From Thermodesulfobacteriota bacterium (lineage in GTDB: Bacteria; Desulfobacterota_D; UBA1144; Nemesobacterales; JAJCZQ01), in NCBI GenBank assembly GCA_965215275.1, contig OZ244044.1, positions 160,001 through 224,000 of the forward strand: a stretch of DNA of 64,000 nt. Direction: 5' to 3'. Below the pieces are notes generated by a model. It was not told where the DNA came from. It searched no databases and worked only from the letters and a program-made list of their open reading frames with translations. Shown here in pieces: positions 20,774 to 46,495 of the stretch. The translations under genes were made by a program, and so were the position numbers. The first letter of the stretch is position 1, and every line of letters starts with the position of its first letter.

Positions 20774-20803
20774 TTGACATTCGTTCATAATACTTGGTAA
20801 AAT
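20774..20803 (+). promoter_or_regulatory. Sigma70-type promoter of S8-like surface protein gene 1
   Basis: TTGACA (20774-20779), 18 nt spacer, TG-extended TAAAAT (20798-20803); ATG 9 nt downstream at 20813. Confidence 0.7.
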
Positions 20804-20849: not shown

Positions 20850-20930
20850 CCCCCCCCCCCATATAAACCTGACCTTTCAGTCTGGTATAAGTATTTTTTA
20901 AGAACAATGTTTAAGATAATCCCCCCCCCC
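20850..20930 (+). repeat. Two poly-C tracts (C11 at 20850-20860, C10 at 20921-20930) in the 5' coding leader
   Basis: Seen directly; each puts a stop codon in frame, and removing one C from each joins ATG 20813 to the downstream ORF. Confidence 0.85.
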
Positions 20931-20973
20931 ATCTAAGTCATTACTTACGTTAGTTTTATTTATTCTGTTTATA

Positions 20974-23900
20974 ATGGTAATAGCTGCAAAAGGGCAGAGC
21001 AGCCTGGAAGAAACATTATCTGAATGCAGAGGTATGAGTGCAGACACGGAAGATCCGTTATACGGATGTCAGTGGCATCTGAAAAATACAGGACAGTTTA
21101 GTATTTCCGGAAATAGAATAACTGCAGGAGAAGATATAAACATAGAGGGAGTGTGGAACGAATACGTATACGGTACCGGAATTAACGTAGCAGTTGTAAG
21201 TGACGGTATCGACCTTTCACATGAGGACCTTTCTGCAAACGTACGTTCCGAACTGAACTATAGTTTTTCTGAGAAAGATAATTCTGACAGTTCATCCTTT
21301 ACCGGAACACGAGCAGCAGGTGTTATTGCAGCGGCTGGATATAACGGACTGGGAGTAAGAGGAACAGCACCTGGTGCGAGTATATACAGTTACAGGTTAT
21401 CCGGTGATCTCAGGGAAGCGGACGCGGTGGTCCGTAATAAAGAAATAACAGCAGTATCGGTTAACGGCCTGGGATCTGAGGACGGAGCTTTTTTTCAGGA
21501 GGCTTTATCTTCCTGGGAAGAAGGAGTGGAACTTGGTATAAGTAAAGGGTTTTATGGTAAAGGAGTGTTTTACGTCCGGGGAGCAGGGGACGGGCATGAG
21601 AATAACGATCAGGCTAATTTTTCTGAATATTCTAATTACTACGGCGTAACAGCCGTGTGTTCAACTGACGGTTATGGAAAAAAGAGTATTTTTTCAGAAG
21701 AGGGAGTAAATCTCTGGGTATGTGCACCTGGTTCTGATATTGTAACCACAGATAACAACAACGATTACGTTGTAACTTCCGGAACATTTCTATCAGCTTC
21801 ACAGGTCGGAGGAGTGGCTGCACTGCTGAGAGAGATAAACGGGAATCTGAGCTGGAGGGATATAAAGCTTATACTTGCGGGTTCAGCACGTCAGAACGAT
21901 TTTTCTGATATTAGCTGGGAGACAGGAGCTGTTAAATACGGCTCTGACACGGAAAGATATAATTATAATCCTAAGTATGGTTTTGGCGTGGTAGACGCAG
22001 AAGCAGCTGCAGAACTTGCAGGAAGCTGGAAAGGCGTTGGAGAGATGAGGACCGTTACCGCCTTTTCAGATAATGAAATAACAATTCCTGATGGAGAAGG
22101 AGAAGCGGATGGAATACTTACCTCCACACTTATGATCCCGGACCTGGAGGAAATATTTACGGAATTCGTGGAGGTAGAACTTGTTTTCTCTCATGACCGC
22201 TTACAGGACCTTAATATACAGATAACCTCTCCTTCCGGGACAGTATCTGAACTTGTGCGGGAGGTTGTAAGGGGATCTTCGAATGAAGAAGAAAACTGCG
22301 TCAGTTACCTGAGAAGAACACATCGTTTCGGGTCGGCTAAGCACCTCGGAGAAGACCCTTCCGGAGAATGGATCCTTAATATATCTGATACTGCTTCCGG
22401 AGATGCAGAAAACACTGTTACCTTACACTCATGGAGCATTAAGGTATACGGGCATTTTTATCAGGGAACTGGCAATGAGATAAATCCTAAACATCACAGA
22501 CTGAATTTTGGCGGTCAGACAATTCAGGATCAGGAGTATCAAGTAGAAGTTCAGATAGCACCATTAGTGCTGCCTAGGGCAACTGGAGATACTGGAATAC
22601 AATATAATTTGACTGATGATCCAAACACAGATGGATTTGCCACTAATGTACCAATTGATGGATTGAGTTTTAACCGTGGAACCAGAACTCTAAGTGGCAC
22701 ACCCACTAATACTGGGTCTTTTGATCTCATATACAGCGCTGTTGGTAGAACAGACGGTACTGCTGCTCAACTTGAGTTCAACGTTACGGTGGTAAACGTC
22801 CCTACCTTCGGAGGTCAGACCATACCAGATCATACGTATGCAAGACTTCAGACAATAAGAAATCCGTTAACTTTTCCTAAAGCAACGGGAGGGAATGCTC
22901 CCTTGACTTACAGTATAACTCCTAAGGTACAGACTGGACTTGCTTTCAGCAGTTCCACTCGGAGGATAACCGGGTCACCTGGGACTGTAAGGAGCAGAAC
23001 TGAGCATACGTATACGGTAACGGACAATGAGGGAGATACGGCTGAGATAACGTTCGGTATAACCGTAGAAGGAAATGACAGGAGGCCGCGTTTCAGAGCA
23101 GGTGAGAATATCTCTGATAAGTTTTATTTTACAGGTGTTCCGATAACGCCGGTAACGCTGCCCAGGGCAACTAACGGGAACAGTCCGATAAAATACAGTT
23201 TAAATCCTTCTTTACCAACTGGATTGAGCTTTAACGCAAATACCCGGGAGATAAGCGGGACACCGACTGCTGCAAGCAGTAACACAGAGTATACATACAG
23301 AGCATCAGACCTTGATGGAGACAGGCGTGATCTGAAGTTCAGTATCACGGTAAGGGATGCAACTGACGTACCGACCTTCGGCAGTGAGACGATAGATGAT
23401 CAGGAGCATACAGCAGGGAGTCAGATAACACCAGTAACGCTGCCTGAGGCAACATCAGGAGATGCTCCGTTAATATACCGTTTAACCCCTGCCTTGCCTG
23501 ATGGATTGATCTATAACAATATCACCGGAGTTATAAGCGGAACACCGACTGCTGCAATGTCTGAGACTATGTATACATATACAGTAACGGATAATGATGG
23601 AGATACGGATGAGCTGACGTTTAATATTGAGGTAGCAGCAAGCTTCAGCAACGTAACGATAGAAGATAAGGTGTATATAGCAGGTACAGCAGTAACGGAA
23701 ATGCTGCCTGAGGCAACTGGACATAATGGAACGGTAACCTACAGTTTAACCCCATCATTACCAACTGGACTGGACTTTAACACAGCTACCCGGGAGATAA
23801 GTGGAACACCTTCTGCTGCATCGTCTCAGACTGCTTATACATATACCGTTACTACTGGTGCAGGAGGACCTGCACGAACTTTGACGTTCAGGATAACAGT

Positions 23901-24366
23901 AGAAGAAGACAGCATGCCGGACTTCAGCGGTACAGCAATACCTGATCGGGTGTACACGGGGAGAGCAATAACGCTGCCGGAGGCAACGGGAGGGAATCCA
24001 CCAGTTACTTACAGTATAACACCTGATCTGCCAGCTGGATTGAGATTTAACGAAGTAACGCGGGAAATAAGTGGGACACCCAGGAGTGCATCAACAAGAA
24101 CTTACACGTATACGGTAACGGACAGCAATGGAGATACGGATGATGCGACTTTCATGCTCAGTGTAGAGGTTACTTCTACTCCAGGACCAACACCACCACG
24201 AGGACCAAGAACGTCAGGTACTGATTCAGGCGGAGGTGGAGGAGGATGTGCCGTCTCAGATCAGATCAGCGTTGTTTATGATATTCTCGGAGCAGTGGCA
24301 TGTCTGATACTTATACCTGTATCAGTAGTTATCAGAAGGAAGAGAAGAGCTCAGATAAAGACGTAG
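20974..24366 (+). CDS. Surface-anchored kexin/furin-like S8 protein (catalytically degenerate) with P-domain, six Ig-like repeats and C-terminal Gly-Cys-TM-basic anchor; true N-terminus lies upstream across the poly-C frameshifts
   Basis: DPLYGCQWHL, GINVAVV, NLSWRDIKLILA, YGFGVVDA, P-domain (ITSPSGT, GEDPSGEWILNISD), repeated LPEATG..YSLTP.LP.GL.FN..TREISGTP, GGGGGGCAVS..LIPVSVVIRRKRR. Confidence 0.85.
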   Translation: MVIAAKGQSSLEETLSECRGMSADTEDPLYGCQWHLKNTGQFSISGNRITAGEDINIEGVWNEYVYGTGINVAVVSDGIDLSHEDLSANVRSELNYSFSEKDNSDSSSFTGTRAAGVIAAAGYNGLGVRGTAPGASIYSYRLSGDLREADAVVRNKEITAVSVNGLGSEDGAFFQEALSSWEEGVELGISKGFYGKGVFYVRGAGDGHENNDQANFSEYSNYYGVTAVCSTDGYGKKSIFSEEGVNLWVCAPGSDIVTTDNNNDYVVTSGTFLSASQVGGVAALLREINGNLSWRDIKLILAGSARQNDFSDISWETGAVKYGSDTERYNYNPKYGFGVVDAEAAAELAGSWKGVGEMRTVTAFSDNEITIPDGEGEADGILTSTLMIPDLEEIFTEFVEVELVFSHDRLQDLNIQITSPSGTVSELVREVVRGSSNEEENCVSYLRRTHRFGSAKHLGEDPSGEWILNISDTASGDAENTVTLHSWSIKVYGHFYQGTGNEINPKHHRLNFGGQTIQDQEYQVEVQIAPLVLPRATGDTGIQYNLTDDPNTDGFATNVPIDGLSFNRGTRTLSGTPTNTGSFDLIYSAVGRTDGTAAQLEFNVTVVNVPTFGGQTIPDHTYARLQTIRNPLTFPKATGGNAPLTYSITPKVQTGLAFSSSTRRITGSPGTVRSRTEHTYTVTDNEGDTAEITFGITVEGNDRRPRFRAGENISDKFYFTGVPITPVTLPRATNGNSPIKYSLNPSLPTGLSFNANTREISGTPTAASSNTEYTYRASDLDGDRRDLKFSITVRDATDVPTFGSETIDDQEHTAGSQITPVTLPEATSGDAPLIYRLTPALPDGLIYNNITGVISGTPTAAMSETMYTYTVTDNDGDTDELTFNIEVAASFSNVTIEDKVYIAGTAVTEMLPEATGHNGTVTYSLTPSLPTGLDFNTATREISGTPSAASSQTAYTYTVTTGAGGPARTLTFRITVEEDSMPDFSGTAIPDRVYTGRAITLPEATGGNPPVTYSITPDLPAGLRFNEVTREISGTPRSASTRTYTYTVTDSNGDTDDATFMLSVEVTSTPGPTPPRGPRTSGTDSGGGGGGCAVSDQISVVYDILGAVACLILIPVSVVIRRKRRAQIKT
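22501..24170 (+). repeat. Six tandem ~90-aa putative Ig-like (He_PIG-like) domains
   Basis: Repeated F.G.TI.D..Y...LP.ATG....YS.TP....GL.F...TR.ISGTP...YTVTD..GDT....F.I.V; boundaries approximate. Confidence 0.8.
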
Positions 24367-27364: not shown

Positions 27365-27427
27365 AGTGGTTCTTGTTCAGGGTAGGGCAGGGGGGGGGGC
27401 ACGTCTCAAGTGGTTTTAACTGATTTT

Positions 27428-38063: not shown

Positions 38064-39376
38064 GGGAATTATAGTGAATAGTTGACAGGAAGAAAAATTG
38101 AAAACGGGTCAGAAAATGGGTAATATTATAGCATGGTTAGAACGATCACAAGAACTGTAAAGGCAGATAGTGTTTTTCATAAAAGGCTGGATGAATTCTT
38201 ACAACAGCTTACCGACCTGTATAACGGAGCTTTATATCACAGATTAAGATCTTATGACTGGTATGAAAAAACTATCTCTAAATACGAACAGTTTAACGAA
38301 CTAACTGAGGTCCGAGAGCAAGACAAGGAATTTGAAAAGTTTAATGTTGTAGCTCAAAGAAGCGTTCTGGAAAGACTGGATAATGCATATAGTCCTTATT
38401 TGAACTATTTAAAGAATAAAAAAGCAGGAAAGAAGGTGGGCAGACCAAAATACAAAGGTCCAAACAGACCTGTCAGAAGTTTTGAAACAAACAATTATAA
38501 AAACATTGAAAAGATCGGCAGAAGAACGTATTTAACGATAAAGGGACTTGGCAGATTATCTTTCAAAGGTTCTATGCCTGATGGAGTTGTTTTAAAACAA
38601 CCTAAAACAACAATAAGGATAGTTAAAACTGCTATAAGGATAAAGATCCAGTTTCTATGTGAGTTTACCAGCGAAAAGAAAAGACCTATGGACAGGTCCA
38701 TAGGGATCGATCTTGGAATTATAAACAGAATGGCTTTTTCAGATGGAACTAAAATACCAGGAGTTCGGTTGAACAGAAAGGAACTGAAAAGAAAGCAGAG
38801 AATTGTTTCAAGAGCGGTAAAAGGTTCTGACAGCAGAAAGAAGAAAGTTTTATCGTTAGCAAAGGAATGGGAACGAACTACCGATCGTGAAAATAACGCT
38901 ATACACAGAATGACTACCGAAATAGTAAAAAAGAACAATCATATAAAGTTGGAGGATTTAAAGATCCAAAATATGGTAAAAAATCCTTATTTAGCAAGAA
39001 GTGTAACGGAACAGCAATGGGGGAAGATTAAAACCCAACTTGACTACAAAGCCGAGATAGCTGGAGGCAAGTTAGTTTTAGTTAATTCCCATTATACAAC
39101 AATGACCTGTTCTGAATGCGGAAAGGTAAATCCAAAACTGCCTTTGTCTGAAAGAGTATTTAACTGTATATATTGCGGTTATTCAGAAGACAGGGATATA
39201 AATGCAGGTAAAAATATCAATACTCTTAATGAAGGAGACTTCATATCGGGTGGGAATAAGGTAGAAATACTCCCGATGAGTGCTAAGAGTATCAGATCAA
39301 AAGAGAACAGGGATAGAGGAACTCTGCACTCAGAACAGTACGAGTAGTTGTTTGTCAACTATTCACTATAATTCCC
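38064..39376 (+). mobile_element. Non-autonomous TIR element carrying tnpB (IS1595-like ends)
   Basis: Perfect 24-bp TIR GGGAATTATAGTGAATAGTTGACA at 38064-38087 and 39353-39376; flanking 8-mers TTATATAA/TTACATAA (7/8 identical). Confidence 0.85.
38133..39347 (+). CDS. tnpB: RNA-guided endonuclease TnpB family protein
   Basis: RuvC-I GIDLG, RuvC-II LEDL, CSECG..CIYCG zinc finger, RuvC-III DRDINA. Confidence 0.92.
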   Translation: MVRTITRTVKADSVFHKRLDEFLQQLTDLYNGALYHRLRSYDWYEKTISKYEQFNELTEVREQDKEFEKFNVVAQRSVLERLDNAYSPYLNYLKNKKAGKKVGRPKYKGPNRPVRSFETNNYKNIEKIGRRTYLTIKGLGRLSFKGSMPDGVVLKQPKTTIRIVKTAIRIKIQFLCEFTSEKKRPMDRSIGIDLGIINRMAFSDGTKIPGVRLNRKELKRKQRIVSRAVKGSDSRKKKVLSLAKEWERTTDRENNAIHRMTTEIVKKNNHIKLEDLKIQNMVKNPYLARSVTEQQWGKIKTQLDYKAEIAGGKLVLVNSHYTTMTCSECGKVNPKLPLSERVFNCIYCGYSEDRDINAGKNINTLNEGDFISGGNKVEILPMSAKSIRSKENRDRGTLHSEQYE

Positions 39377-42417: not shown

Positions 42418-43706
42418 GGGAACTATATACTTAAGTATCCAGTGGATACTAAAAGTTCTCTTTGACGAGTCATAGACCAGTTCCTGTCCCCAACCCCTCT
42501 GCAGTCTCCCCGTCCAATCACCCCTTTCCCTGAGGCTATAATTTGTTTTATTCCAGTTTCCAACTGGTTAAATGCAGCATTTAAGTCAGCATTAACTTCA
42601 TAACCGCAAGATGTACACTTAAATCTGGATTGCGATCTTCTGTTATCAGGAGATCTGTGTCCGCATTCAGAACAGGTTTGACTGGTATATGCAGCTGGAA
42701 CTTCTTCAGTAGCATTACACTTGTAATCCAGCATCCTTTTCATATCAAACCAGCCAGTAGCACGAATGTTCCTGTTCATCTTGCGAAAGTTCTTCCATTT
42801 CTTTCTGGCTGTCATCCCTTGTGTATTAAGTCTCTCAAGTACAGGAACATCATAAAGATCGGAGATCTTTCTTGTAACCTGATGTCTCCAGTCCTTCTGT
42901 CTGTTTGCCAGCTTCCTATGAAGTTTCTGTAACCTTTCCTTAGTAATTCTCCACCTGTTACTTCTCTCTTCCTGACGTGCAAGTTTCTTTTGGTATCTGC
43001 GTATCTTTGCTTCTGTAAGTTCATCATCAGATAACTTAAAAACCTGTCCGTCAGACAGCGTAACCTGTCTTGAATTCCTGTCCATTGCTACAACTCTTAC
43101 TTCTTTCTTTTCCTTTTTAGTTTCATCTATCTCATAGGTAAGGTACGCATACCACTTACCGCATTCCTTCCTTATCCTGCCAGAAAGGAACTTTCCATCA
43201 GGATATGGATTCTTACCTGCCAACCTGAACCATCCAACCTTTAAAATACGGAGCCACTTATTATCTGACAGTTTAGCTGACTGATAATTTACCGGGAATG
43301 AAGGAGTGGTTTTTAATTTACTCTTGAATTTAGGTTGTCCCGATTTTCCATCCCTGTATCTCTTACAGGCATTTGTAAGGTCCAGTAAATAATGCTGAAG
43401 TATGTAAGCAGATGCTTCTTTCAGAAAGTAGTTCTTTTCTTCTTTCTTCAATTCTCTCAAATCGTTACCTAAACTCTCATGACCATAACCATCATTAAAA
43501 TCATTATCCTTTAAATTTCCCACGAATTGATTCCAGATAAACCTGCAACAGCCAGCAGTAGAGGAAAGTTTATGAAACTTCTCCCTGTTGTTTGATCTCA
43601 ACCTCTGCCTTACCGTTCTTATTGTCTTACCTTCTTTCATATTTGTAATTTTACCTTATTCCCTTGCTTTTTTTAAGTAGTTTGGATAGTTAAGTATATA
43701 GTCCCC
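42418..43706 (-). mobile_element. Non-autonomous TIR element carrying tnpB (IS1595-like ends)
   Basis: 24-bp TIRs GGGAACTATATACTTAAGTATCCA (42418-42441) and, on the minus strand, GGGGACTATATACTTAACTATCCA (43683-43706), 22/24 identical; perfect 8-bp TSD TTGTCAAT at 42410-42417 and 43707-43714. Confidence 0.9.
42423..43640 (-). CDS. tnpB: RNA-guided endonuclease TnpB family protein
   Basis: GCCRFIWN, PKFKSK, RuvC-I AMDRN, RuvC-II LERL, TSQTCSECG..FKCTSCG, RuvC-III NADLNAA. Confidence 0.9.
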   Translation of the reverse strand: MKEGKTIRTVRQRLRSNNREKFHKLSSTAGCCRFIWNQFVGNLKDNDFNDGYGHESLGNDLRELKKEEKNYFLKEASAYILQHYLLDLTNACKRYRDGKSGQPKFKSKLKTTPSFPVNYQSAKLSDNKWLRILKVGWFRLAGKNPYPDGKFLSGRIRKECGKWYAYLTYEIDETKKEKKEVRVVAMDRNSRQVTLSDGQVFKLSDDELTEAKIRRYQKKLARQEERSNRWRITKERLQKLHRKLANRQKDWRHQVTRKISDLYDVPVLERLNTQGMTARKKWKNFRKMNRNIRATGWFDMKRMLDYKCNATEEVPAAYTSQTCSECGHRSPDNRRSQSRFKCTSCGYEVNADLNAAFNQLETGIKQIIASGKGVIGRGDCRGVGDRNWSMTRQRELLVSTGYLSI

Positions 43707-43918: not shown

Positions 43919-46372
43919 TCAGGTCTTTATCCGAGACCTAATCTTCCTTCTTATCACAACAGATACAGGTATAAGCATCAGCGATGCCACTGCTGTGAGC
44001 ATATCAGGAACGGCTTCGCTCTGACCGGAGACCGCACATCCTCCTCCGCCTGTATCACTACCTGATGACGTTGGTCTTTGTGTCGGTGGTCTTGTTGTTG
44101 GTGGGTCTGTCGGTCCTGGCGGCGTAGTTGTTACCCTGATCGTAAATCTCAGCTCATCCGTATCTCCATCTTCGTCCGTTACCTTATATGTATAACTGCC
44201 AGAAGATACAGCAGTCGGTGTTCCGCTGATAACTCTGTCAGTTTCACTGAAAGCAAGTCCAGCAGGTAAACCAGTAGCAGGTAAAAGAGGGGACAGGCTG
44301 TAGGTCAGTTCTCCATTCCCTGCTGTTGCCTCAGGCAGTGTTTCTTTTATTGCAGTTCCCGGCACGTAATTCTTATCTGGTATGGTCCAGTTGTTAAACG
44401 TCGGCGTGTCCCCAGACATATGACCATAGACCTTTATGTTCCATGAGTGTAAGGTCCCCGTACCTGCAATTGAATTGTTAGTTATCTTCAAGGTCCACTC
44501 TCCAGCAGGGTCCGTTCCTAAGTGATTGGCTAAACCAAAACGATGTTCCCTGCCTGTGTACTTAAAGTCGTCTACAGTAAGAGATCCGTCAGATAAATGT
44601 GATAACGCTTCTGATGCATATTCCTCAGTGAGTTTTGACACGGTAGTATCGTCAGGAGAAGTTATTTCTATATCTAAAAAAGGAAAGAAAGGATGGGTAA
44701 AATTGATACCTATCTCTATAAATTCCGTAAATACCTCAGTGTCTGGTATATCTATATCAGGTACTGTCAGTGTGAAAACAACTGAAACGTCTTCTGCGTT
44801 TTCCCCCGTTGTGAAGTCTGGTATAACCGTATTGATATTACCCGAGGAAACCGTCACGGGTTTCATTTGCGGTGGAACGTTGGTCCAGCTTTCTGCAAGT
44901 TCCACTGCAGCTGCAGCGTCTACTGTGCCAAAAGTATCTACTGTGCCAAAACCGAACTTTGGATTGTAAAAATAATACTCTGAATCAGAACCGTATTGAA
45001 GTGCTACTCTCTTCCATTCTTGGGTATCACCGGAACGGGAGCCCTGGCTGGCTGAACCTGCCAAGATCAGTTTCAGGTCTCGCCAGCTAAGATCACTGTT
45101 TACCTCTCTCATCAGTGCTGCAATTCCTGAAACGACCGCTGCTGAATTTGACGTTCCAGGGAACTCAAAAGTATAACCGTCGTTATTGTCGGTAGTTACA
45201 ATACCGGAACCCGGTGCACATACCCATAGATTGTATCCCTCTTCTGAAAAGGAACTCTTAGTAACAGCGAGCGCATCCCTATCGATCTCTGATGAACATA
45301 CGGTAGTTACTGCGTAGTAGTTGGAATACTCATCAAAATTAGCCTGGTCTGATCCTTCATGTCCGTCCCCTGCCGCCCATACGTAAAACACCCCTTTACC
45401 ACCAAATCCTTCTCTTATACCCGTTCTCACCCCTTCTTCCCACTCTGATGAAGCCTCTGTAAGAACGGGAAGGTCCTTCGGTCCCCAGTTGTTGACCGAT
45501 ACAGCAGTTATATCCTTATTACGGACCATGGCGTCCTTTGCATTAGCATCACTGAAGTTACCAGCTAAATTATAACTGTAGATGTTTGCCTCAGGTGCTA
45601 CACCTCTTACTCCAAGGCTGTTATCACCCACTGCTGCTATAATGCCAGCTACACGTGTTCCACGACCACTGAAAGGACTGTACAGATCACCATTCCCAGA
45701 GTAATCATGAGAAAGTGTGGTATCTACATTGTCAGCAAGGTCCTCATGGTCTGTGTCCATACCATGATCTACCACCGCTACGTTAATCCCAGCACCAAAT
45801 ACGGCATCATCCCAGACATCTTCTATGTTTATGTCTATATCTTGTCTGGCGGAGGTTTGGAATACCTTATCGCCACCTAATATTACATCAACCGCTGGAG
45901 ATTCCAGATACCACTGACAGCCGTATAAGGGATCATTTGGAAAATTGGTAGTAATAATTGAACAGGTTTCAAAGAGTTGATTAGAATCAGCTAATTGAAC
46001 TTGAACTCGATAGGATGTAGCACCACTGCTTCCTACAACGATATAGTACGTTCCCCGTCTGAGGTGAGTTTGTATAGATATATTTCCTAGTAGCCTTTCA
46101 TCACTTGGGTCCACTACTTCAGTAGTACTTGCTATCAGATCATCATTACTGTCACATACCTGTAGGCTGTATTCCTGATCATTGGAGAAGGGGAAGGTTA
46201 CCAATATATCTGCAATAAAATCTCCATTTATGTTTATCTGAAAGTAATGCGGATCAGCACCGGCAGCTAAACTTCCATTGTGTGTTGGTCCTTGCACTCT
46301 CAACGTAGCTTCGGTCGTTGCACTGGAGTCACAGTTGTTAATGCTGGTCTTACCATATGCACTAATGGACAC
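43919..46372 (-). CDS. Surface-anchored kexin/furin-like S8 protein (catalytic His replaced) with N-terminal PPC-like domain, P-domain, one Ig-like repeat and Gly-Cys-TM-basic anchor; true N-terminus lies upstream across a poly-C frameshift
   Basis: DPLYGCQWYL, VAVVDHG, GRGTRVAG, GTSNSA, DLSWRDLKLILA, GTDPAGEWTLKI, GGGGCAVS..LIPVSVVIRRKIR. Confidence 0.85.
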   Translation of the reverse strand: MSISAYGKTSINNCDSSATTEATLRVQGPTHNGSLAAGADPHYFQININGDFIADILVTFPFSNDQEYSLQVCDSNDDLIASTTEVVDPSDERLLGNISIQTHLRRGTYYIVVGSSGATSYRVQVQLADSNQLFETCSIITTNFPNDPLYGCQWYLESPAVDVILGGDKVFQTSARQDIDINIEDVWDDAVFGAGINVAVVDHGMDTDHEDLADNVDTTLSHDYSGNGDLYSPFSGRGTRVAGIIAAVGDNSLGVRGVAPEANIYSYNLAGNFSDANAKDAMVRNKDITAVSVNNWGPKDLPVLTEASSEWEEGVRTGIREGFGGKGVFYVWAAGDGHEGSDQANFDEYSNYYAVTTVCSSEIDRDALAVTKSSFSEEGYNLWVCAPGSGIVTTDNNDGYTFEFPGTSNSAAVVSGIAALMREVNSDLSWRDLKLILAGSASQGSRSGDTQEWKRVALQYGSDSEYYFYNPKFGFGTVDTFGTVDAAAAVELAESWTNVPPQMKPVTVSSGNINTVIPDFTTGENAEDVSVVFTLTVPDIDIPDTEVFTEFIEIGINFTHPFFPFLDIEITSPDDTTVSKLTEEYASEALSHLSDGSLTVDDFKYTGREHRFGLANHLGTDPAGEWTLKITNNSIAGTGTLHSWNIKVYGHMSGDTPTFNNWTIPDKNYVPGTAIKETLPEATAGNGELTYSLSPLLPATGLPAGLAFSETDRVISGTPTAVSSGSYTYKVTDEDGDTDELRFTIRVTTTPPGPTDPPTTRPPTQRPTSSGSDTGGGGCAVSGQSEAVPDMLTAVASLMLIPVSVVIRRKIRSRIKT

Positions 46373-46410: not shown

Positions 46411-46495
46411 GGGGGGGGGGGGAGAAACTTCAACATTATTATATTATTGTACTTATGTCCAGCTGAAAGGTCAAGTATATATGGAGGGGGGGGGG
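46411..46495 (-). repeat. Two poly-C tracts on the sense strand (G12 at 46411-46422, G10 at 46486-46495 on +)
   Basis: Seen directly; the first tract (C10) is in frame and the second (C12) leads into TAA; C11 would restore the signal peptide. Confidence 0.85.

Follow-up and report, generated by a model that had tools for sequence, protein, structure and literature searches.

The window, by which we mean the whole 64,000-nt stretch of DNA that was analysed, carries two members of one family of kexin-like S8 proteins on opposite strands (Table 1), and a search of it against Rfam gave no match. The first member, called from an internal ATG, encodes an S8 domain, a P-domain, an Ig-like stalk and a C-terminal tail. 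Pfam matched Peptidase_S8 with an E value of 7e-23 (residues 67–311), P_proprotein at residues 397–490 and He_PIG with an E value of 5e-50; five stretches of the stalk pass in Pfam and a count of the repeat motif gives six Ig-like units, so that the P-domain and six repeats of the original prediction both stand. The top PDB sequence matches are furin and Kex2 (E ~1e-33), furin being found by phmmer at 5.6e-34. Because a single-sequence model reached a pLDDT of 31, the model built on a 67-row alignment was taken instead (pLDDT 86, pTM 0.91). Comparison of this model with Kex2 and furin resulted in a TM score of 0.85 and a Z score of 49, with a root mean square deviation of 1.9 Å over 438 residues, indicating that the fold is retained. 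The subtilase fold is followed by the P-domain, which is the layout of the S8B proteases.

The catalytic triad and the oxyanion residue of furin (Asp153, His194, Ser368 and Asn295) are all replaced in this protein. In the phmmer alignment, Asp153 corresponds to S76 (AGT, 21199–21201), His194 to T110 (ACC, 21301–21303), Asn295 to D206 (GAC, 21589–21591) and Ser368 to F272 (TTT, 21787–21789), and the family alignment places D, H, S and N at these columns in six canonical paralogues of the same genome. The exchanges of Asp for Ser, His for Thr, Ser for Phe and Asn for Asp had been read from the motifs alone in the original prediction, and the furin alignment and the canonical paralogues fix every motif at the place given there. 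The possibility of an active S8B protease was rejected on the replacement of both the triad and the oxyanion Asn. The exchange of Asn for Asp is not disabling alone, because proprotein convertase 2 carries Asp at that position as well. The protein belongs to a clade of 29 such triple-dead copies, in all of which the triad reads [SG]-[ST]-[FV], with Phe or Val at the nucleophile position, and the oxyanion position is Asp.

The substitutions extend into the substrate cleft. The window ORF has GL in place of SW on the substrate-aligning strand and Arg in place of Trp at 202. Across the triple-dead clade, Ser253-Trp254 of furin becomes Gly/Asp-Arg/Leu/Trp, with Arg or Leu for Trp254 in 25 of 29 copies; Trp291 becomes Arg or Leu in 24 of 29, mostly Arg; and Asp306 becomes Ser or Asn in all 29. 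Acidic residues are retained at furin positions 258 (Asp or Glu), 301 and 331. The acidic S1 pocket, which in furin is made up of Asp258 and Asp306, is therefore incomplete in the clade, with position 258 kept and Asp306 gone. Of the six canonical paralogues just one has Asp306, and a specificity for dibasic sites may thus never have been a property of the family. Neither an I9 nor an S8 prodomain match was found by Pfam in the window ORF or among the members scanned, eight from the genome and two outside homologues; the predicted lack of a propeptide is thus borne out, although it is weak evidence of deadness because no scanned family member has a prodomain match. Alternative catalytic residues in the cleft appear excluded by the alignment, and the window copy is almost certainly catalytically dead.

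The original prediction also described the reading frame as intact, which is correct from the internal ATG onward but not at the 5' end. From the ATG at 20907, the C10 run leads to a stop after nine residues, while the hydrophobic core of the likely signal peptide, located upstream of the called start, shares its frame with the long ORF; the window gene is OFF as assembled. Paralogues with a run one base shorter, such as the copy at G000 1028816, read through into the hydrophobic stretch. The C11 run further upstream sits within a short frame (ATG 20813, stop 20866) or belongs to the untranslated leader of the second ATG. The gene has the hallmark of a homopolymer contingency locus: its frame depends on a run of at least eight C or G in the 5' part of the coding sequence.

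Table 1. Positions of the two family members and their associated elements in the window.
Feature	Position	Strand	Remarks
Sigma-70-like promoter TTGACA-18-TAAAAT, extended -10	20774..20803	+	11/12 consensus matches
First poly-C run, C11	20850..20860	+	Short upstream frame read from sequence
Likely true start, second poly-C run C10 (20921-20930) and premature TAA	20907..20936	+	
Hydrophobic core and likely cleavage region of Sec signal peptide	20931..20997	+	By eye, in stop-to-stop frame
Pseudo-protease ORF, 1130 aa	20974-24366	+	Called from internal ATG 20974
Kexin-like S8 domain without catalytic residues	21055..22023	+	Pfam, phmmer, model
Proprotein-convertase P-domain	22039..22455	+	PF01483, E 3e-15; structural matches
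Stalk of six He_PIG Ig-like repeats	22498..24180	+	Pfam, repeat motif count
C-terminal sorting-like tail: Gly run, Cys (24247), transmembrane helix, basic end	24229..24366	+	
Asp-Arg-Ser paralogue with N-terminal PPC-like domain and one Ig repeat	43919..46372	-	
Two poly-C runs of the Asp-Arg-Ser paralogue (C10 46486-46495, C12 46411-46422)	46411..46495	-	Out of frame as assembled

The genome is a single contig of 1.99 Mb with a completeness of 99.9%. Its DnaK is 83% identical to that of a MAG labelled Thermodesulfobacteriota and 76–78% identical to those of Candidatus Dadabacteria MAGs, and the lineage is likely Dadabacteria-related on this protein comparison. The gene had originally been viewed singly, a view that does not hold: it is one of 57 loci with 58 S8 ORFs that together occupy 176 kb or 8.8% of the genome, its signal peptide is frameshifted by poly-C, and it ends in a Cys-type tail. 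No further decayed copies were found by tblastn of the genome. The catalytic states of the 58 ORFs are graded, with D-H-S-N in six, D-H-S-D in one, G-H-S-D in one, D-R-S-D in ten, D-R-A in seven, S-H-A in one, N-x-A in one and the triple-dead state in 29, the other two being fragments; Asp-His-Ser is retained at seven loci. The heads are 80–93% identical to each other, and three of the 29 triple-dead ORFs are interrupted before the tail. TTGACA lies upstream of most family members, most copies having their own promoter-like site. An N-terminal PPC-like domain of ~125 residues, for which the PDB holds no relative, is present in 6/6 canonical, 10/10 Asp-Arg-Ser, 1/7 Asp-Arg-Ala and 0/29 triple-dead copies.

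Several members depart from the common layout. The member at G000 C1:310752-315482 (-) carries five PPC-like domains in tandem at its N-terminus and has a pseudo-triad that reads N-x-A, and the one at G000 C1:513689-518958 (-) is split by a long G run just ahead of the catalytic Asp motif and shares with the member at 427581 a 24-residue insert behind the oxyanion residue. In the copy at G000 C1:397719-401609 (-), a DLSHE unit is repeated five times in tandem and in frame within the dead S8 domain. Two genes without an S8 domain (627284-628606 (+) and 1649106-1650050 (+) on the same contig) have the 5' poly-C and tail of the family together with the PPC-like domain, in three copies or one.

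A quick IQ-TREE tree with SH-aLRT support only was computed from 85 rows (56 from this genome, 11 close outside sequences and 18 chosen distant ones). The sequences of the lineage form one branch (100) with the canonical copies basal, the degenerate and oxyanion-Asp copies form one clade (96) with the canonical copies outside, and the triple-dead copies form one clade (100) that is sister to two Ser-to-Ala forms. This topology fits an order of loss in which Asn to Asp would have come first, followed by His to Arg, Ser to Ala, and finally loss of Asp with Ala to Phe or Val, an order that gene conversion may blur and that assumes the root of the tree.

Outside the genome, the intact state prevails, with D-H-S-N in 87 of 100 homologous domains, a set that consists of the best 120 of 1348 matches minus own-genome proteins, plus 20 of 24 loci. 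The nearest named outside relatives are MAG proteins of 38–46% identity, mostly from Dehalococcoidia (22/24), and close degenerate homologues were found in other assemblies (P0023, P0029, P0037, P0054, P0058 and P0062). Part of the window stretch is present in 13 of 18 listed runs from eight studies. The window protein had no match in four genomes of the same family, one of which was matched by PF00082, and distant S8 genes alone were found in 11 of 36 genomes of the same order; these assemblies comprise 20–270 contigs at 80–99% completeness, and short-read contigs shatter in this S8 family. The start-plus-poly-C pattern had no match among metagenome contigs, a protein scan of which returned four distant loci only (41–44%), and an Atlas search with the homologue P0069 returned generic S8/P-domain clusters only. 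The distant homologues P0032, P0040, P0051, P0084 and P0106 have degenerate S8 domains of their own (D-R-A, D-H-A, D-R-G and D-N-H), some of them fused in tandem with a canonical domain. From their sequences, these appear to be independent losses in the wider group.

The second family member in the window belongs, with nine paralogues elsewhere in the genome, to the Asp-Arg-Ser clade, in which Asp and Ser are kept and Arg takes the place of His. A His directly follows the catalytic Asp in 10/10 of these copies and in three of the 100 outside domains, all three of this clade. Conservation is far stronger in the cleft than elsewhere in the domain (pN/pS 0.15 versus 0.47), and the clade is a candidate for either a rewired catalytic site or a fixed ligand site. 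Genes of the IS605/TnpB family lie at 38133-39347 (+) and 42423-43640 (-), the second of them directly downstream of this paralogue.

For the S8 domain, pairwise comparison gives a dN/dS of 0.26 among triple-dead copies, compared with 0.34 for canonical, 0.42 for Asp-Arg-Ser and 0.25 for Asp-Arg-Ala copies, values that are non-independent and that gene conversion may distort. None of 406 triple-dead pairs has dN above dS, and 244 of 480 positions of the triple-dead domain are invariant. Purifying selection thus acts on the dead heads, with a constraint equal in strength to that on the enzymes, and they are very probably functional proteins. The reading of the first gene as a dead kexin-like protease on an Ig stalk is thereby upheld, with Phe or Val at the Ser position throughout the clade, the fold kept and the sequence under purifying selection.

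Variation in the triple-dead clade is concentrated in segments of the old cleft, where pN is 0.128 compared with 0.064 elsewhere at equal pS, a value reached by none of 322 shifted masks; the mask follows the general furin subsites rather than model coordinates. Diversifying selection on the cleft is nonetheless not shown, as pN/pS there (0.52, against 0.25 in the rest of the domain) is below neutrality and the canonical proteases reach a level just as high (0.59 against 0.32). Positive selection is not supported because the canonical copies share the raised cleft variability. A Ser/Glu/Asn-rich insert of variable length lies immediately before the old His position in the triple-dead clade.

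Dead heads of this kind might bind and regulate the six or seven active paralogues, much as CspC and CspA act as a signalling pair, or serve as decoys for protease inhibitors or substrates of the host, comparable to the scabies SMIPPs that bind host complement. The genome does encode active paralogues with the family tail, the acidic residues at furin 258, 301 and 331 are kept, and CspC is known to pair with CspA, likewise an S8 pseudoprotease, in a heterodimer (PMC12880746). We nevertheless regard such a partnership as unlikely, since about 50 separately gated copies far exceed the needs of regulating a few enzymes, and the rebuilt cleft, with Trp254, Trp291 and Asp306 changed and Phe or Val at the nucleophile site, argues against a canonical substrate or inhibitor.

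The gating of these copies can be followed across the genome. A 5' poly-C run is present in 49 of 50 degenerate ORFs and in none of the six canonical ones; on the tree this amounts to one independent pair, and the association between dead state and poly-C is without statistical support because it has a single evolutionary origin. The frame could be scored for 48 copies: it is correct in 11 and shifted by a run one base too long in 25 and two bases too long in 12, the in-frame number being no different from one third (binomial p 0.17). Genome-wide there are 78 C/G runs of length 6, none of 7 and 139 of at least 8 (68 nine-mers and 32 ten-mers), and 81 of the 139 long runs are found no more than 300 nt from the 5' end of a family member. 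This peak at 9 and 10 resembles that of Campylobacter contingency tracts, for which 9 (53%) and 10 (26%) are given in PMC6321876. The remaining 58 runs of at least eight are located away from the 5' ends of the family, many of them no more than 60 nt from the start of an ORF, and constitute a broad candidate phasome. In the window, a G10 at 27390-27399 lies in the 63-nt gap between convergent glyoxalase II-like and short-chain dehydrogenase genes.

Homopolymer errors in the assembly would leave the genes in reality intact and constitutive, and the reliance on a one-contig assembly whose commonest state is exactly one base long (25/48) would be in keeping with this. The second-run length of the window is, however, found again in single contigs of two other studies (X5 record 17 and X7 record 25), the proteins P0023, P0029, P0058, P0059 and P0062 of other assemblies are likewise called from internal starts, and a gap at 7 with a peak at 9 is no error pattern; we consider this explanation highly improbable. 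Several lengths occur at both poly-C runs among contigs of other sequencing runs, and the second poly-C run has lost one base in 5 contigs of X1, 5 of X3 and 2 of X4 relative to the window; these length variants may be different paralogues, because all copies pile onto the same stretch. MutS and MutL genes are present in open frames, so slippage should be lower. We hold switching by poly-C slippage to be probable. A +1 ribosomal frameshift at CCC-C might conceivably allow low-level expression of the 25 one-base-long copies.

The out-of-frame copies could alternatively form a silent reservoir that donates by gene conversion to a few expressed loci, the poly-C keeping the donors silent. This would account for the 37 of 48 scorable copies that are frameshifted, of which 25 share an offset of one base, and recombination among the copies is clear: no permutation of 500 gave a site-incompatibility as low, and the nearest neighbour of a copy differs by segment. 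P0129 and P0130 differ mostly in one patch near the oxyanion residue, and the copy at G000 1336543 has a full N-terminus in three assemblies. The copies are, on the other hand, full-length, dispersed and mostly equipped with their own promoter-like site, unlike promoterless cassettes, and the in-frame fraction does not depart from one third. In P0129 the N-terminus is complete, while P0037 and P0130, its 95%-identical counterparts in other assemblies, have start calls that are internal, which hints weakly at a locus that has switched. A silent reservoir therefore seems to us an unlikely account, on a par with the regulation of active paralogues, and switching of each copy at its own tract is preferred.

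The tail of Gly run, Cys, transmembrane helix and basic end is common to the family, with the Cys invariant. Its score of 13.4 bits, compared with 22.5 for Synerg-CTERM, is below every catalogued cut-off. The genome has a sole CPBP/Rce1-like protease match (G000 C1:680830-681114 (-), L053), immediately upstream of the family member at 678054-680561, which scores 65.4 bits against the cut-off of 100 for the myxosortase core Mrt_core, and a type II secretion system (T2SS) GspD above cut-off that is followed by a GspE-like ATPase gene. A sorting route of the GlyGly-CTERM/rhombosortase type was rejected, since the tail has no HMM match and the genome no rhomboid (no PF01694 match at 99.9% completeness, with 14 of 14 controls found). 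The MYXO-, Synerg- and JDVT-CTERM systems do not match by tail HMM and do match in layout, in that a Cys, transmembrane and basic end occurs with a CPBP protease and a T2SS. In MYXO-CTERM and Synerg-CTERM, as described in PMC11980579, a Cys motif, transmembrane helix and basic end likewise occur on dozens of proteins with myxosortase and T2SS, whereas both the tail and the CPBP protease of the window family fall below all cut-offs. By analogy with the myxosortase system in that account (PMC11980579), the tail may be cleaved and lipidated and the protein displayed by way of the T2SS, and surface display is probable.

A polymorphic head, a stalk and a Cys-type tail are also the layout of myxobacterial TraA, which is the best weak NCBIfam match of the tail (E 0.04, far under cut-off), and the family might serve in self or kin recognition with the expressed subset as an identity code. 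There is no homology to TraA beyond the tail, and the heads, 80–93% identical, have no sign of positive selection, so that we regard such a role as improbable. Instead, we somewhat favour a set of surface pseudo-proteases that is subject to phase variation and binds an external partner. According to this reading, the family likely expanded from a few active proteases, which the genome still encodes, as catalytic residues were lost step by step; a triple-dead copy would likely be a non-catalytic binding head on an Ig stalk at the cell surface; poly-C slippage in the signal peptide would likely switch each copy on or off; and the copies together would likely form a variable, non-enzymatic surface coat. 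An adhesin or decoy role for the dead heads, as first proposed, is plausible, and that it is directed toward a host rather than toward phage or kin we judge to be about even. More speculatively, a furin-like protease may have been turned into a combinatorial surface code of ~50 frameshift-gated pseudo-enzymes, 9% of the genome with every decay step present, in which the ten-member Asp-Arg-Ser clade may have a rewired catalytic site; this larger claim is tentative and we lean against it.

Each part of this arrangement has precedent, in CspC/CspA, the SMIPPs of scabies mites and NalP. The kexin/furin S8B proteases (Kex2, furin and Aeromonas sobria ASP) share the S8 and P-domain fold at ~25–31% identity, with TM scores of 0.81–0.82 for ASP, which folds with the separate chaperone ORF2 (PMC5638518). 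The window family differs from them in the replaced triad and oxyanion Asn, the altered substrate strand and S1 Asp306, the absence of a prodomain, and the possession of an Ig stalk, a Cys-type tail and dozens of gated paralogues. Like the window protein, the clostridial Csp proteins have an S8 fold with a substituted triad kept by selection; in C. difficile, CspC has Thr for His (T170) and has lost Ser (G485), and CspA has Q757 and A1064 (PMC7200643). The Csp proteins are two soluble spore proteins with an uncleaved prodomain, whereas the window clade is kexin-type and stalked, has 29 members and lacks the entire triad, and membership of CspC was rejected at 19.1 bits against an NF040808 cut-off of 675. 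Scabies SMIPP-S and SMIPP-C form a multigene dead-protease family beside active relatives, as here, and some SMIPPs bind host complement proteins (PMC4031079). Unlike the window family, SMIPPs are eukaryotic, secreted and of other protease folds. Frameshift gating is not known among them. In Neisseria meningitidis, a poly-C tract within the coding sequence makes NalP, a subtilisin-like protease of the cell surface, phase-variable (PMC5472700). NalP differs from the window family in being a single-copy, active autotransporter. In the dispersed Opa family, every gene has its gate in the signal peptide; Opa proteins are beta-barrels with pentamer-repeat gating, unlike the window family. In the literature searched, which covers few subscription papers, the bacterial S8 pseudoproteases found are the clostridial Csp proteins, and no report was found of the window family, of this combination of parts or of a phase-variable pseudo-subtilase repertoire.

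In fragmented short-read assemblies such a family would vanish, and annotation would present its members as ordinary proteases with truncated N-termini. Here, one genome contains the gradation between canonical enzymes and triple-dead heads, each state being represented by dozens of natural variants, and this graded series makes the order of catalytic loss and of gain of a binding role directly testable. The family is a pointer to a variable coat, in the style of pathogens, in an uncultured lineage that has been little studied.
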